37,577 nucleotides of DNA, taken from the IMG/VR virus record IMGVR_UViG_2529292717_000013, one strand, 5' to 3'. Under the pieces are notes generated by a model, which saw only the letters and a list, made by a program, of their open reading frames with translations, was not told the origin of the DNA and did no database searches. Both the position numbers and the translations under genes were made by a program. Shown piece by piece: positions 31,430-36,581 of this stretch (positions are counted from its first letter, which is position 1; every line of letters starts with the position of its first letter). The stretch comes from a virus. Taxonomy: Duplodnaviria > Heunggongvirae > Uroviricota > Caudoviricetes.

Positions 31430-31585
31430 AGCTTCAGCCCCTTGTATCCGTTAAATGATTCGGCAACAATCATCACCCACCACGCGCGTAATCTCACCCC
31501 TGCGCCGTTCTCCCGCCACGGCGACAACAAAAAGCAGTACCCCCCTCCGCACGCACATGCGACCATGCCGCACAGGGAGGGAAAG

Positions 31586-32689
31586 ATGACCGACACCACC
31601 ATGCAATTGCTCAGTCAGGGCACAGACCCCGTGAAAATGCCGGATTTTGATATTCTCGCCGAGGGTAAAACGCTGTCCGGCGTGGCAGAACGCCTGATGA
31701 GCCTGTCACTGACCGACAACCGGGGATTTGAGGCGGACCAGCTCACCATCACGCTGGATGATGCCGATGGCCAGTTGCAGCTACCGCCACGGGGCGCGCG
31801 TCTGACGGTTCTCATTGGCTGGAAAGGAGAACCGCTGACAGAAAAAGGCACTTACATTGTTGATGAAATCGCTCACGAAGGACCGCCGGACAGGCTGACT
31901 GTTTCAGCCAGAAGCGCAGATTTTCGGGATGAATTTAACGTTAAACGTGAGGTGTCCTGGCATGATGTGACCGTTGAGCGTGTGGTATCCGCCATCGCTC
32001 ATCGGTACGGTCTGAAACCGCAAATCAGCGAAATGCTGATGGATATCGAAATCGACCACGCCGACCAGACCGAAGAAAGCGACATGTCCTTCTTACGCGC
32101 ATGGCGGAAATGCTGGGCGCAATCACCACGGTAAAAAGCGGAATCTGTTATTCATATGCCGGCGGTGGCGTGAACGCACAGGGCCAGCCGTTGCCATCGT
32201 TCGCCATCACCGCAGCAGGGCGATCGCCATCAGTTCCGCATTGCTGACCGCGAAGCGTATACGGGGGTACGCGCTTACTGGCTTGATCTTAATTACGGGA
32301 AAAAGAAAAAAGTCAGCGTGAAACGCCGCAAACCGCCAAAACCCAAAAAGGAGAAAAGCAGCAGCCGTGAAGGTGATTATATGGAAGGCGCGGAAGGAAA
32401 TGTGTTTGTGTTACGCAAGACTTATCAGAACGAGCAGGCAGCAAGACGCGCAGCGGCGGCAAAGTGGCAGCAGCTACAACGCGGAGCCGCATCATTCTCC
32501 ATCACACTGGCACGTGGACGAGCAGAACTCTACCCCGAAATGCATGGCACGGTAACAGGATTTAAAAGCGAGATTGATAATCAGGACTGGATTATTGCAA
32601 AAGCCGGGCACACCATTGATAACAGCGGCTTTACCACGCAGCTTGAGCTTGAGGCAAAAATCCCGGAATGGATAGCGGAAACAGAGTGA
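31586..32689 (+). pseudogene. D: tail protein D (late control gene D family); compensating pair of frame changes at about 32095-32225
   Basis: Start at the ATG after a GGGAGGG RBS (MTDTTMQLLSQG...); conserved segments in frames 2, 1, 2; C-terminal part is track ORF 32318..32689. Confidence 0.8.
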
Positions 32690-32731
32690 GCAACTTAGAA
32701 TAGCGGCAGCACCACGTTAAGGGAGGTCGCT

Positions 32732-32992
32732 ATGTTCCGTTGTCCGCTTTGTGGCGCATCTGCCCGTATCCGCACCAGTCGTCCGGAAAATGATTCAAAC
32801 ACCGTGCGGCAAAAGTATTACCAGTGTAACAACCTGGAATGCGGCATAAGTTTCTCAACACTGGAAGCTTTCCATAAATTCACATCGAAACACGCCTCCG
32901 GCGTTCACTCATCAGAAGGTATCCCGTGGCATGAGCTGCCAGCTTCACACAGGGGAAACAATCAGATGAGTTTGCCTTTATCTCAGAATTAA
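32732..32992 (+). CDS. ogr: Ogr/Delta-type zinc-finger late transcription activator
   Basis: 86 aa; MFRCPLCGASARIRTSR...YYQCNNLECGISFSTLEAF matches the Ogr C-x2-C...C-x4-C pattern. Confidence 0.85.
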   Translation: MFRCPLCGASARIRTSRPENDSNTVRQKYYQCNNLECGISFSTLEAFHKFTSKHASGVHSSEGIPWHELPASHRGNNQMSLPLSQN

Positions 32993-33182
32993 CAGGCAGA
33001 ATTGCCGGAGTAACAAAAAAGCGATAGATTACGCGCGGGTGCCTTTCGGCTGATGGTCGGAGGGAATACCCGAAGGCCAGATGTGGAAAGGCCCCGGAAA
33101 ACATTTCTGTTTAACCGAGGCCCTAACCGTCTAACCTTAGCAAGTGATAGGTTAGCGCCTCCCTGAAAAAGGAGCAAGCGCT

Positions 33183-33323
33183 ATGTCGCAAAAATCGCTT
33201 ACGGCCATCACGTTCTGCGTGACGGCAATCCTCATCATCTGGATGCTGCACGGTTCGCTGTGCGAAATACGGATGAGCTTCTGGGGAGCGGAGTTTGCGG
33301 CGTTCTTACAGTGTAAGCAGTAA
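33183..33323 (+). CDS. hok: Hok/Gef-family type I toxin (small membrane protein)
   Basis: 46 aa (below the track cutoff): MSQKSLTAITFCVTAILIIWMLHGSLCEIRMSFWGAEFAAFLQCKQ, with N-terminal TM and SLCEIR / AAFL motifs as in Hok proteins. Confidence 0.7.
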   Translation: MSQKSLTAITFCVTAILIIWMLHGSLCEIRMSFWGAEFAAFLQCKQ

Positions 33324-33385
33324 GGAAACCGCGACGGGGGAGCAATCCCCCGTCAATCGGTTGCCAGGGTAAGGTCGATAAGGCA

Positions 33386-33396
33386 CCCTATCTCAC
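33386..33396. repeat. left copy of the 11-bp direct repeat CCCTATCTCAC (putative target-site duplication)
   Basis: Abuts the left inverted repeat; identical copy at 34896-34906. Confidence 0.5.
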
Positions 33397-33510
33397 CAAT
33401 GCCGTTCAGTTAGTTAAGGAATTGAGGTTCGATAGCCCGAACCTCGCGCAGAGGCAATATGACCGAAAGCCTGATTCCTTAATGCCCAAGATGAGTCTCT
33501 ATTCATAAAA
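33397..33510. repeat. left terminal inverted repeat of the cassette
   Basis: CAATGCCGTTCAGTTA...ATGAGTCTCTATTCATA; internally folds as TTAAGGAAT...[GAGGTTCG-ATAGCC-CGAACCTC]...ATTCCTTAA. Confidence 0.6.
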
Positions 33511-33732
33511 GCGCTTAACTACTCGACATTGGCGGTGTATCCCCCGCATTGTCTGAATGCCGCCTCTTACCTTTCGCGGTCAACTGACGACTTCTAGTTC
33601 TAGAACGCCTTGATTTTTTGTACTTGTACATTGAAAAATAACCATAAATTGTTAGCCTGTGCAGTAGACTCAGTGGCGGTAACTGGTCAGCATGAAGTGT
33701 AAAGTGAATAACGAAGCTCTAAAATTATAGGG

Positions 33733-34566
33733 ATGGTCATGAATAATAAGCTAAAGGTAATTGAGTTAAATAGTCTTGATCTGTTTCGTAAAGAATTACT
33801 AACTACTATAAAGCCAGAGAAAGTAGAGAAATTACTTAGATGGTATCTTCAATCATATGGCGGTGTTAATTTCAAGTTCGGTTATGACAGACCAATTTTT
33901 AGAGCGCGAAAGTGCCCAAATGAATGCGGATATAATAACATCAGTGAGATATATCCCCCTCCACCAGAAAAATGTAAAATAGGCCGAATGAATGATGATG
34001 GACAAGCTATCTTCTATGGCGCTTATAGTATCGGAACAGCTTTAGCCGAAATTAATGCAAAAGAAGGGGATTATGTTCACATAGCTCACTTTAAGATGCC
34101 GGAAAATTCAGAGTCTGGAATGCGATGTTTTGCTATCGGTGAGGTCTTTAATGTGTATCACGGTGTAAATACAATTTCAATTGAAGTGTTTAATGAAATT
34201 CGCGACATCATTAGCAGAATTGGTAAGGACGACATCCGAGCTTTGCTATCATATTTGTATATGGATGCCCTTTCTGCTGAGTTGCTTAATAGTATCAATG
34301 CCCATGAGGTAAATTATATTTACTCAAGAATTTTTTGCCGTCTTCTTCTTGATAAATACCCTGATGTTGATGGCCTTATTTATCCTAGCGCTAAAATAAA
34401 AGGGGCCTCAAATATCGCTTTGCGCACAGAAACAGTTAAATCGAGAATGCATTTAGTTGCTAATCTTGTGTTTAAAGTAAATAAAATTTATCCATATGGA
34501 ATAGTAGATTTCAGTATAGTAAAACAAGCCAAAGGACATACATCAGATGGGCGCATCGTTTGGTGA
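33733..34566 (+). CDS. RES-domain protein (putative NAD+-targeting toxin-like effector), solo
   Basis: 277 aa, AT-rich; GRMNDDGQAIFYGAYSIGTALAE and DGLIYPSAKIKGASNIALRT resemble the R...E...S motifs of RES domains (recalled). No adjacent Xre-type partner. Confidence 0.5.
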   Translation: MVMNNKLKVIELNSLDLFRKELLTTIKPEKVEKLLRWYLQSYGGVNFKFGYDRPIFRARKCPNECGYNNISEIYPPPPEKCKIGRMNDDGQAIFYGAYSIGTALAEINAKEGDYVHIAHFKMPENSESGMRCFAIGEVFNVYHGVNTISIEVFNEIRDIISRIGKDDIRALLSYLYMDALSAELLNSINAHEVNYIYSRIFCRLLLDKYPDVDGLIYPSAKIKGASNIALRTETVKSRMHLVANLVFKVNKIYPYGIVDFSIVKQAKGHTSDGRIVW

Positions 34567-34726
34567 GCCAAACTTTTAGTTAGCTGATTGAAAAACCGAT
34601 GCGTCAGTTTGCACTGCATGTGGTGTATGGGAAGCGCGGGCTTGTAGTGCAGGTCATTTCAGAAGAAGCTAACGAGAAAGCTTAGACATACTGTGACTAC
34701 TAAACAAGCAGAAAGCCCGTGTTTAT

Positions 34727-34746
34727 GGGGGGGAGGGGGGGGGGGG
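34727..34746. repeat. homopolymeric tract G7-A-G12
   Basis: Read directly; lies inside the cassette just internal to the right inverted repeat. Confidence 0.7.
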
Positions 34747-34785
34747 CAATCCCCACAACAGGCGATGTCGATTAGTTAATACACT

Positions 34786-34895
34786 TGTATGAATAGAGAC
34801 TCATTTTTGTGCATTAAGGAATCAGGCTTTCAGTCATCTTGCCTCTGCGCGAGGTTCGGGCTATCGAACCTCAATTCCTTAACTGAACTACATTG
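34786..34895. repeat. right terminal inverted repeat of the cassette
   Basis: Reverse complement aligns to the left repeat with a few mismatches and one 4-bp indel. Confidence 0.6.
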
Positions 34896-34906
34896 CCCTA
34901 TCTCAC
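34896..34906. repeat. right copy of the 11-bp direct repeat CCCTATCTCAC
   Basis: Abuts the right inverted repeat. Confidence 0.5.
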
Positions 34907-35093
34907 AGCTCTAAATGCAAAAATCCCATGAAACTGTGGGTATTTCATCACACACTGACACTGCTCTACCTTTCTATATGTATCACTCTAAACCAGTTAA
35001 TCAATTGGCACTTATCAACAACAAAAAATCTGATAAAATCAAAATGTTTTGTAACAAATTTCAGCTTGTAGTGTTCCAAAGGAGACGGATTAC

Positions 35094-35426
35094 ATGGCAT
35101 TAATCAAATGTCCTGAATGCCAGAAAGAGGTCAGCGATTCAGCATTATGTTGCCCTGCTTGTGGTAAACAACTGAAAAAACTTAAGCGTTCATTTTTTGG
35201 AAAACTCATTAAATGGGCTTTTATATTTTTTAATATTTTTATGATCTATACACTTTTAGTTGGACTAGGAGGCGCTGATGAAATAATAAACAATACCACA
35301 TCCGATGCCGAAAAAGCTGGGGCAGTTATTGGTACGGGCTTAGGTTTAATTGCCATTGGAGGCTTATGGGTTATTGGCGATATCATTATCGGAATTTTAG
35401 TATTTCTTACTAAACCAAAGGGATAA
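35094..35426 (+). CDS. zinc-ribbon membrane protein (N-terminal CPxC...CPxC, two TM helices)
   Basis: 110 aa; MALIKCPECQKEVSDSALCCPACGK then hydrophobic segments; AT-rich. Confidence 0.55.
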   Translation: MALIKCPECQKEVSDSALCCPACGKQLKKLKRSFFGKLIKWAFIFFNIFMIYTLLVGLGGADEIINNTTSDAEKAGAVIGTGLGLIAIGGLWVIGDIIIGILVFLTKPKG

Positions 35427-35430
35427 TAAA

Positions 35431-36324
35431 ATGAAAAATATGATTTTTTCTATAGGTGCATTATTTATATCAATTAGTGTACTGCCTGTTCACGCAGCAA
35501 CTGAACATAAGAATTTCAATGCAGTGCTCCAGTGCCGAGCGATAGAAAACAATAAAGACAGACTTTCTTGTTACGATAAGTCAATACAACCGACTCGAAC
35601 GAAAGTTGCTGACAAATTTGAAAGCAGGGATCAATGCCCTGATGAGAAAGATGATGACAAACGTTTATCTTGTTATGATCGTTTTTTTTCTCCAACATTT
35701 ACTCCATCTGTAAACTCAAAATCTAAAACGGAAAAGCTAGTAACAACAGAGGCTCAGCAACCAAATCTTTCTGAAATATCTAAATGCCGAGCAGAAAATG
35801 ATAAAGAAACCAGACTAAACTGCTACGATAAACTATTCCCACAGGATGAAGCTGTTCAATCTGAATCACAATTAGAGAAAGCCACAGATGCAGGAAAATG
35901 GCACACGTCCATTACTACATCGCCAATTGATGATTCGAAAAATGTAATTTTATCGTTAGAAAGTGATGATTATATCAGAACTCCATTTGGAGAAGCTGTT
36001 ACTCCCACTCTGTTTATAGCTTGCCGAGAAAAGAAAACCGAAGTATTTCTTAGTTGGGATGTATATTTAGGCCTTGAACAAACCAGCATGCTGTATCGTC
36101 TTGATAAACAGAAAGCAGTTGAAAGAAACTGGCTAATATCTACAGATACAAAGGCTGTTTTTTATAAAGGTAATGATATTGATTTCATAAGAAAACTTGC
36201 CAACTCACATAAAATGTACACAAAAATAACCCCCTATAATGAAAGCCCTGTAAGTGCAACTTTCAATTTAAGCGGCCTGTCAAATGCACTAAAACCGCTT
36301 CAAGATGCTTGTAACTGGAAATAG
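35431..36324 (+). CDS. secreted protein with three RL(S/N)CYD(K/R) repeats
   Basis: 297 aa; signal peptide MKNMIFSIGALFISISVLPVHAA; repeats DRLSCYDK, KRLSCYDR, TRLNCYDK; AT-rich; 4-bp gap to the upstream gene. Confidence 0.55.
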   Translation: MKNMIFSIGALFISISVLPVHAATEHKNFNAVLQCRAIENNKDRLSCYDKSIQPTRTKVADKFESRDQCPDEKDDDKRLSCYDRFFSPTFTPSVNSKSKTEKLVTTEAQQPNLSEISKCRAENDKETRLNCYDKLFPQDEAVQSESQLEKATDAGKWHTSITTSPIDDSKNVILSLESDDYIRTPFGEAVTPTLFIACREKKTEVFLSWDVYLGLEQTSMLYRLDKQKAVERNWLISTDTKAVFYKGNDIDFIRKLANSHKMYTKITPYNESPVSATFNLSGLSNALKPLQDACNWK

Positions 36325-36342
36325 TATATACCTCCCCAATAT

Positions 36343-36385
36343 CAGATGACAAAACGCCCGTGAAAACGGGCGTTTTGTCATCTGT
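36343..36385. terminator. long perfect hairpin (19-bp stem, GAAA loop), probable bidirectional terminator
   Basis: CAGATGACAAAACGCCCGT-GAAA-ACGGGCGTTTTGTCATCTG. Confidence 0.5.
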
Positions 36386-36581
36386 AACTCGAAAATGTGG
36401 TCATTGCGTGGACATACGATGATATAAATCCTTTTATATCAAAAGATTAAACCACTATTATTTTCCTCAACAAGGATTTTCACGTTTGTGTTACCTGTAT
36501 GAGACGAGAGTTAACCGGACAAGTGTGCCATAATCTCGCGGCCAGGCATACTTGCGAAGATTTCAGGTATAAGGATACGTA

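Follow-up and report, generated by a model that had tools for sequence, protein, structure and literature searches.

The stretch of DNA analysed here (37,577 nucleotides, hereafter the window) carries a real, essentially intact hok/sok-type module, of which the only unusual point is that the standard mok leader frame is missing. Taken as a whole, it is very probably a hok/sok accessory locus lying directly after ogr in a P88-like (Xuanwuvirus, Peduoviridae) prophage beside flk, equipped with the RNA switch set out below. The preliminary description of this DNA had proposed a hok-like type I toxin locus with an mRNA of the hok/mok/sok type, to be checked by folding the 5' and 3' regions, by searching for a Sok-like antisense promoter opposite the leader and by comparison with chromosomal hok loci. 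Its interpretation is supported, as protein, leader, 5'-3' pairing, 3' hairpin and antisense features all agree with it, while three points need amending: mok, the part played by the hairpin and the place of the prophage boundary. The locus itself is already known and matters little, being annotated in RefSeq, catalogued and widespread in E. coli prophages, with its peptide already cloned. hok/sok is the best-studied type I toxin-antitoxin family and its leader open reading frame (ORF) is treated as essential in textbooks; if the missing mok start is confirmed, an abundant type I toxin-antitoxin branch would regulate its toxin without a leader ORF.

The toxin is encoded by a single short gene:

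33183-33323, + strand: hok toxin gene, 46 aa (ORF list, Pfam, PHROG, RefSeq)

The encoded peptide, MSQKSLTAITFCVTAILIIWMLHGSLCEIRMSFWGAEFAAFLQCKQ, holds both motifs by which it had first been noticed, SLCEIR at residues 25-30 and AAFL at residues 39-42, and passes the threshold of the Pfam HOK_GEF profile (PF01848; 29.9 bits, E 4e-7, profile positions 5-42 of 42, gathering score 22 bits); PHROG 251 matches it with 80.6 bits. Scores against the NCBIfam HokA equivalog NF007290 (34 bits, missing the cut-off of 89) and the Hok subfamily NF007279 (21.6 bits, missing the cut-off of 73) are far too low, so the protein falls in the Hok family yet is none of the named Hok proteins, and by sequence we assign it to a separate cluster of the Hok/Gef family, outside the named HokA-E. 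The RefSeq entry, WP_000078916.1, reads 'Hok/Gef family protein'; the PHROG-derived label 'MokW-like host killing' is a misnomer, because the ORF encodes Hok and not Mok. Values of dN/dS for hok against its relatives range from 0.09 to 0.63, below 1 in all pairs, indicating a peptide under selection, which we count as support for a hok/sok locus.

The same peptide appears as Hok 72_1621 in Table S2 of Escalera-Maurer et al. (bioRxiv 10.1101/2025.08.07.668861), where it belongs to cluster 72, is listed with high abundance and was cloned as plasmid LRP137 for a toxicity assay; its coding DNA is separated from the hok gene of the window by one synonymous change (TTG in 72_1621, CTG in the window). 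All residues conserved in more than 80% of Hok peptides are present by our reading of the alignment, namely M1, C12, T14, L26, C27, E28 and E37 (M1, C16, T18, L30, C31, E32 and E41 in the logo numbering of the preprint). In the available text of that preprint, 42 of 45 homologs were toxic and the three named non-toxic exceptions are sequences other than 72_1621, so that a peptide identical to ours is, from the literature, reported among the toxic homologs (bioRxiv 10.1101/2025.08.07.668861). The survey covered the coding sequence only and explicitly left Mok, Sok and the mRNA ends aside; 72_1621 is known there as a coding sequence.

The genomic setting is that of a P88-like phage. On the 5' side of hok lie tail gene D and then ogr (32732-32992, Pfam Ogr_Delta), which is on the same strand as hok with no terminator-like site between the two. 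The ogr-then-hok order is found in P88, P88_4B11, Chuche, PhiR44_2, 500465-2 and 520873, and positions 32700-33396 are 96-99% identical to the first five of these and to a Citrobacter phage. The hok segment is present in 1750 of 5426 complete E. coli genomes, annotated as Hok/Gef family protein, and distant copies with 74-87% identity sit after the lom or J gene in lambdoid/Stx prophages as well as on IncI1 and IncF plasmids. Species-representative genomes, one for each species, were scanned too and gave 5 loci, from Escherichia, Salmonella and records titled Planococcaceae and Vagococcus, the last two of which are probably contamination.

On the other side, the preliminary description had placed the locus against the right end of the prophage, which is true of the phage group and false for the window. 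Homology to the K-12 chromosome (the pdxB-flk intergenic region, upstream of flk) resumes only at 36459, and the sequence therefore places attR near that position, ~3.07 kb past the 3' end of hok. Between hok and attR come a cassette with a RES-domain gene and then a zinc-ribbon gene and a VasI/TagO-like gene, the latter two inside the P88_4B11 genome record. In cargo-free relatives, hok and its terminator are the last features before the chromosome, and in E. coli S65EC serS begins 300 bp downstream. We read hok as marking the end of the conserved P88-type backbone, and the hok-to-attR stretch as variable cargo, for which, as for Hok itself, PADLOC gave no match.

Prophage retention is the likeliest role for such a locus, with help in lysis or in the exclusion of other phages as a possible one. 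Going further, the module might be a lysis or exclusion accessory and no stabilization device at all: read-through from ogr late in the cycle, or loss of Sok on induction, would let Hok speed lysis or abort the infections of other phages. We regard this as possible, though doubtful. R1 hok/sok has reportedly been seen to act against T4 infection, and the window offers a suitable arrangement, with hok on the strand of ogr, 10 nt past the ogr stop codon, and a variable cargo region at its border. hok is also enriched about four-fold in prophages (bioRxiv 10.1101/2025.08.07.668861), and hokW-sokW of the Stx2 prophage Sp5, a proven prophage hok/sok, doubles Sp5 release after mitomycin C (PMC8621323). 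HokW is, however, a different Hok of 51 aa, HokC/D-like (MKQQKAM...) and not the cluster-72 peptide, for which reason we set hokW-sokW aside as a direct homolog; Stx phages additionally carry a cluster-72 copy downstream of lom with 82% DNA identity to our locus. A section heading of the preprint moreover states that hok is not enriched near defence systems (bioRxiv 10.1101/2025.08.07.668861), and PADLOC found nothing at the locus. In papers on E. coli W and Salmonella prophage transcriptomes, 'hok' occurs only incidentally. The question of lysis or exclusion concerns the biological role and is compatible with the mechanism that we propose for the RNA.

The RNA elements were placed by aligning K-12 hokB and hokC, R100 hok (the coding sequence of which equals that of R1 hok) and relatives to the window. 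The sense-strand elements are as follows:

33002-33030, + strand: putative hok promoter, -35 TTGCCG (33002-07), 17-nt spacer, -10 TAGATT (33025-30)
33037-33388, + strand: core of the full-length hok mRNA, 5' GGGUGCC through fbi
33037-33051, + strand: tac-like 5' element, pairing with fbi (full-length) or ucb (truncated) in minimum free energy (MFE) structures
33086-33095, + strand: ucb-like box GGAAAGGCCC, the alternative partner of tac without fbi, from folds of 33037-33357 and of nascent transcripts
33117-33161, + strand: predicted antisense-target hairpin of the truncated mRNA, with CTAACC/GGTTAG repeats and loop 33132-45 exposed
33155-33181, + strand: predicted hairpin hiding the hok ribosome-binding site (RBS), in which the anti-Shine-Dalgarno strand GCGCCUCC pairs with GGAGCAAGCGC
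33333-33354, + strand: 9-bp GC-rich 3' hairpin GACGGGGGA-gcaa-UCCCCCGUC, from the MFE fold and as covariation helix 15
33373-33388, + strand: fbi-like 3' element, pairing with tac, its box GGCACCC ending at 33388

The hok promoter candidate starts 10 nt after the ogr stop codon, and its TAGATT occupies the position of TATAAT, TAGGAT and TAGATT just 5' of the conserved GCGGGTGC in K-12 hokC, hokB and relatives. With a consensus score of 8/12 it lies under the threshold of a strict sigma-70 scan, which returned no promoter on either strand of 32900-33750, and both this promoter and the antisense one described below therefore rest on homology and conservation. Downstream of it, Rfam RF01794 matches 33037-33196 on the + strand over its full length (43.6 bits, E 2e-7, model positions 1-157 of 157), below the gathering score of 59; the family is named 'sok', but its consensus represents the hok mRNA from its 5' end to the hok AUG. 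DNA homology with the hok loci of Stx phages covers 33016-33388, and the 356-nt hok RNA folds with a predicted -159.5 kcal/mol (z = -6.85).

In the MFE structure, 15 pairs join tac to fbi and close the full-length RNA, a helix that is 95.2% paired across 36 alleles, with variation nearly all of the G-C to G-U kind. The hok Shine-Dalgarno AGGAG (33170-74) lies inside the GCGCCUCC/GGAGCAAGCGC hairpin, the helices of which (7 and 8) are 98-99% paired across the same alleles. When the last 35 nt are removed (fold of 33037-33357), tac pairs with GGAAAGGCCC instead and a new hairpin forms at 33117-61, its loop complementary to the predicted 5' tail of Sok. The CTAACC...GGTTAG inverted repeats already seen in the leader (CTAACC at 33123-28 and 33131-36, GGTTAG at 33150-55) fall within this one hairpin of the truncated-mRNA fold. 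The folds predict both the tac/fbi end pairing and the alternative tac/ucb stem, and a tac/ucb conformational switch after 3' truncation has been described for R1 hok (PMC9841398).

Across the 36 distinct alleles, 94.3% of the cells of the whole fold hold standard pairs. Double changes affect 24 pairs, compared with 10.5 +/- 2.0 in shuffles (0/500) and 7-21 when partners were slid, although the alleles are close relatives and the structure was derived from the window, so that covariation counts and energy consistency are not independent. The set is also shallow: besides the 5 loci of the species-representative scan, 80 IMG/VR loci all encode the identical peptide. These compensatory changes support the predicted hok mRNA fold without proving it. 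Applied to the alleles, RNAalifold predicted the local tac/ucb fold at the 5' end instead of the end-paired one, a result that agrees with two alternative structures without choosing between them.

The perfect hairpin noted after the ORF is indeed present at 33333-33354, with four of its nine pairs compensatory and 98.8% pairing across the 36 alleles. No U run follows it on the + strand, and the sole terminator-like call in 32900-33750 is this hairpin read on the minus strand. By analogy with the R1 model (PMC9841398), its most likely role is not that of a terminator: it would block 3' exonucleases and in this way set where the processed, active mRNA ends; the removable tail beyond it measures ~34 nt.

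Opposite the leader, we find the elements expected of an antisense RNA:

33149-33177, - strand: putative Sok promoter, -35 TTGCTC (33177 to 33172), 17-nt spacer, -10 TAACCT (33154 to 33149)
33141 to 33085, - strand: predicted Sok-like antisense RNA, ~57 nt, its ends set from the K-12 sokC/sokB positions

The search for an antisense promoter opposite the leader thus gave candidate hexamers, which overlap the hok Shine-Dalgarno region; scoring 6/12, they were not picked up by the strict scan. In the alignment, the -10 falls on TATCCT of R100 hok/sok (AGGATA in reverse complement), and the complements of the promoter, AGGTTAG and GCAAG, are invariant in the 36 alleles. The predicted RNA takes the same position relative to the hok start codon as annotated K-12 sokC and sokB, and it consists of a variable 5' tail, a hairpin GGCCUCGG...CCGGGGCC and UUUCC as a short U tail (fold z = -4.7). 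Among 29 alleles, standard pairs make up 98% of the hairpin when it is read as antisense and 80% when it is read as sense, several C-A mismatches of the mRNA becoming G-U pairs in Sok; in every allele the antisense version is the more stable one, by 5-18 kcal/mol. The ~20 nt between the Sok promoter and the Sok hairpin form the most variable stretch of the leader in the 36 alleles, and such a hypervariable 5' tail is the pattern expected of a recognition sequence.

The predicted order of elements is that of R1/R100 hok/sok (parB): promoter, tac, ucb, antisense target, Shine-Dalgarno hairpin, hok, 3' hairpin, fbi and terminator. The putative antisense promoter overlaps the Shine-Dalgarno region, as that of R1/R100 does, and the toxins share SLCEIR and E-AAF. 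The window differs in being carried by a prophage and not a plasmid, in a leader 27 nt shorter (146 nt, against 173) and in a Hok of 46 aa, against 52, with HG in place of the TRK before SLCEIR. Of the chromosomal loci compared, K-12 hokB/sokB and hokC/sokC share with the window the conserved 5' GCGGGUGC and, where Sok is predicted in the window, its placement with respect to the hok ATG, and hokB also has the GGCACCC fbi; they differ in mok, as the K-12 loci carry annotated mokB and mokC, with an ATG 57-58 nt before hok that the window lacks.

In R1, the mok AUG occupies nt 116-118, 58 nt before hok (PMC9841398). At the aligned position the window has TAAC where R1 has TATG, with no ATG, GTG or TTG, and no ORF of the window (as given by the ORF list) overlaps the hok start. 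The mok-like overlapping frame named in the preliminary description is thus absent, but an antisense promoter and terminator are predicted and the identical peptide is reported to be toxic, which leaves the proposal of that description unrefuted by the rule it had set itself. Two other upstream ATGs do exist, at -130 and -102 relative to hok:

33053-33166, + strand: 37-codon upstream ORF from ATG -130, in a frame that overlaps hok in many relatives
33081-33134, + strand: 17-codon ORF (MWKGP...) from the conserved ATG -102, its length and frame not conserved

Because no start codon stands at the mok position, we propose that control acts, as we think, on the hok RBS directly and not via a mok leader ORF. 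Predicted opening energies of the hok RBS across the 36 alleles are 13.2 kcal/mol in the full-length RNA, 9.6 in the truncated RNA and 13.5 in the truncated RNA with Sok, the direction of the two changes being consistent in 35/36 and 36/36 alleles. In R100, the hok site is flat (17.7, 17.1 and 18.2 kcal/mol) and the mok site opens instead (12.6 to 7.8), so that the site opened in silico by truncation is that of hok in the window but that of mok in R100. For a thermodynamic prediction, 4-5 kcal/mol is a modest difference, and we take the energies as a hint, not a demonstration, of direct hok control in the branch to which the window belongs. More tentatively, the cluster-72 hok loci, whether after ogr in P88-like phages or after lom in Stx phages, could be a mok-less hok/sok variant in which fold-back and Sok act on the hok RBS by competing for the anti-Shine-Dalgarno strand (GCGCCUCC, for which GAGGCC in the Sok-target hairpin and the hok Shine-Dalgarno would be alternative partners), with no leader ORF needed; the terminator-less ogr-hok gap might then tie Hok to late-phase transcription.

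The two upstream ATGs suggest another solution, which we consider unlikely: a mok-type coupling through a different leader ORF, starting at ATG 33053 or, in other alleles, at 33081, whose ribosomes would unwind the anti-Shine-Dalgarno hairpin and hand over to hok, and which Sok would block. For the family, such coupling is possible because a long upstream ORF overlaps hok in 34 of 62 distinct alleles, where an upstream ATG opens 61-87 codons running into hok. The ATGs themselves are conserved (-130 in 58/62 and -102 in 61/62 distinct alleles), and ATG 33081 would lie right at the edge of a Sok duplex. For R1, ribosomes have to translate mok as far as the hok Shine-Dalgarno and no further (PMC9841398). 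In the window, the 33053-33166 frame terminates at TGA 33164-66, a codon that reads CGA or GGA in relatives and that leaves 3 nt to the hok Shine-Dalgarno; few loci have this TGA (6 of the 95 sampled), and a stop so placed could still permit termination-reinitiation coupling.

Several observations weigh against this coupling. Neither ATG is at the mok position, and both lie in the tac/ucb stem region, so that structure alone could conserve them. ATG 33053, 16 nt from the mRNA 5' end and without a Shine-Dalgarno, has a predicted opening cost of 18-24 kcal/mol, and the site of ATG 33081 becomes no more accessible when the RNA is truncated (11.4 to 13.6 kcal/mol); on these predictions, neither upstream ATG behaves as a regulated start site. 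The frames also vary widely among alleles encoding an identical Hok, from 1 to 87 codons for the two upstream ORFs and from 1 to 79 codons for the one from ATG -102. An open +2 frame across hok, which we considered as a sign of selection for mok, was rejected, as the frame stays open to at least +83 in 86% of random synonymous recodings.

Under direct control of the hok RBS, the switch would run as follows. The weak promoter TTGCCG-17-TAGATT would make a hok mRNA starting near 33037, as in the R1 model. In the full-length RNA, the 15 tac/fbi pairs would close the ends and the hok Shine-Dalgarno would be held in GCGCCUCC/GGAGCAAGCGC, both features being predicted and covarying. Slow 3' trimming, again by the R1 model, would halt at the hairpin 33333-54 and remove fbi, upon which, in silico, tac pairs with GGAAAGGCCC at 33086-95 and the freed GAGGCC takes the anti-Shine-Dalgarno strand, building the CTAACC/GGTTAG hairpin; this fold lowers the predicted opening cost of the hok RBS by ~4 kcal/mol. 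A Sok-like RNA of ~57 nt from TTGCTC-17-TAACCT would pair with 33085-33141 and restore the anti-Shine-Dalgarno hairpin, and the duplex presumably also triggers RNase III cleavage, as modelled for R1. Once Sok synthesis stops, through prophage loss or induction, the unstable Sok would decay and Hok would be made, a timing that we infer. Going by the toxicity reported in the available text of the Hok survey, this 46-aa inner-membrane peptide would then arrest growth or kill the cell.

What sets the 3' end of the window apart from that of its relatives is an insertion:

33397-34895, strand not assigned: cassette of 1499 bp with ~115-bp terminal inverted repeats, carrying the RES-domain gene
33386-33396 (left) and 34896-34906 (right), strand not assigned: 11-bp target duplication CCCTATCTCAC flanking the cassette
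34925-34949, + strand: first + strand terminator-like site after hok, moved 1.5 kb from fbi by the cassette

The cassette had been placed about 65 bp downstream of the toxin gene, which is roughly right, as it starts 73 bp after the hok stop codon. It was inserted 8 bp after fbi, and the 11-bp duplication keeps fbi intact; the relative L024 shows the empty site with a single copy of CCCTATCTCAC. In cassette-free relatives and in R100, an intrinsic terminator follows 8-30 nt after fbi. The window has no + strand terminator-like site in 32900-33750, and hok transcripts may run on into the RES gene because the first such site is now at ~34925. The displaced terminator could alter 3' end formation and hence the whole switch.

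If the mok-like coupling were true, the TGA of the window might silence hok. We consider improbable a silenced relic, in which the toxin gene is intact and Hok is no longer expressible in this prophage, as in several K-12 chromosomal hok loci. The rare TGA allele in the mok-like frame, the 1.5-kb cassette between fbi and terminator, the damaged look of the prophage (six 1-nt deletions in gpD when compared with P88_4B11 and with E. coli WAT) and the IS186 flanking K-12 hokC would speak for it. Against it, the weight of the TGA hinges on a hypothetical role of mok; the hok ORF with its Shine-Dalgarno, tac and fbi, the 3' hairpin, the predicted Sok hairpin and the two putative promoter regions are all intact; the segment 33010-33400 is 100% identical in other genomes; the duplication leaves fbi untouched; and 66 genomes, as well as the phage record P88_4B11, have the form with the cassette.

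Two further ideas about the cassette were discarded. An apparent second hok remnant within it (GGGGGAGCAATCCCC at 33336-50 and GGGGGGGCAATCCCC at 34740-54) gave a local alignment score of 25, where shuffles averaged 21 and reached up to 29, and is attributed to chance. Nor does the cassette look like a widespread mobile element, as no more than 66 of 5426 complete E. coli genomes contain its inverted repeat, apparently always at the hok-adjacent site.

Between hok, the 46-aa Hok/Gef toxin ORF, and attR, the right end of the prophage, the window holds an inserted cassette and a separate cargo unit:

33397-34895, cassette of 1499 bp with terminal inverted repeats and a target duplication
33733-34566, RES-domain gene (277 aa), the sole gene of the cassette
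35094-36324, cargo unit of two genes, located after the cassette and before attR
36459-36480, attR region, the prophage/chromosome junction upstream of flk

Each end of the cassette is formed by a terminal inverted repeat about 115 bp long (33397-33511 and 34784-34895), and an 11-bp target duplication (CCCTATCTCAC) flanks the whole. Between its ends (33397-34895) there is no transposase and no Xre-type partner for the RES-domain gene, and the cassette found no match in PADLOC, PHROG or NCBIfam. Among 5426 E. coli genomes its repeat turns up in just 66, apparently at the same site every time, and one of the sampled hok loci, L024, represents the empty site, without the cassette. Downstream of the RES-domain gene, still within the cassette, lies a long run of G (GGGGGGGAGGGGGGGGGGGGG, 34727-34747), which could be either a slippage-prone stretch or an assembly artefact.

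The first gene of the cargo unit encodes a zinc-ribbon membrane protein of 110 aa (PHROG 6586) and the second a secreted protein of 297 aa, the C-terminal half of which resembles the type VI secretion-associated protein VasI/TagO, with a score of 78.8 bits that falls short of the cut-off (124). The unit is followed at about 36340-36375 by a strong terminator, and both genes also occur in the genome record of the related phage P88_4B11. Homology to K-12 then begins in the attR region, at TATTTTC(C/A)TCAACAAGG; as the first base of the window falls at the integrase stop codon, attL lies beyond it.

Among the IMG/VR provirus contigs with this hok (L021-L100), around half stop exactly 3 nt past its stop codon, which indicates that, to boundary callers, the phage genes end with hok; they thereby drop its 3′ UTR, the terminator and fbi, the 3′ element of the hok mRNA that pairs with the 5′ tac.

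The hok of the window belongs to Hok cluster 72, another copy of which, with 82% DNA identity to it, lies directly downstream of lom in Stx2 phages (L003 from E. coli ERL06-2497, and Stx2a phage records). Since a separate hokW-sokW locus has been described on the Stx2 prophage Sp5 (PMC8621323), at least some of these phages may carry two different hok modules. Furthermore, records titled Planococcaceae and Vagococcus (L016 and L017) contain the hok of the window at 98% protein identity; the Planococcaceae record is a metagenome-assembled genome, and hok in both is most likely enterobacterial DNA contamination.

Elsewhere in the window, six deletions of one base each, crowded into 130 bp (32089-32219; also position 31583), disrupt tail gene D when it is compared with P88_4B11 and the prophage of E. 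coli WAT, the latter being near-identical elsewhere with gene D intact. These differences reflect either a patch of sequencing errors or a defective prophage.
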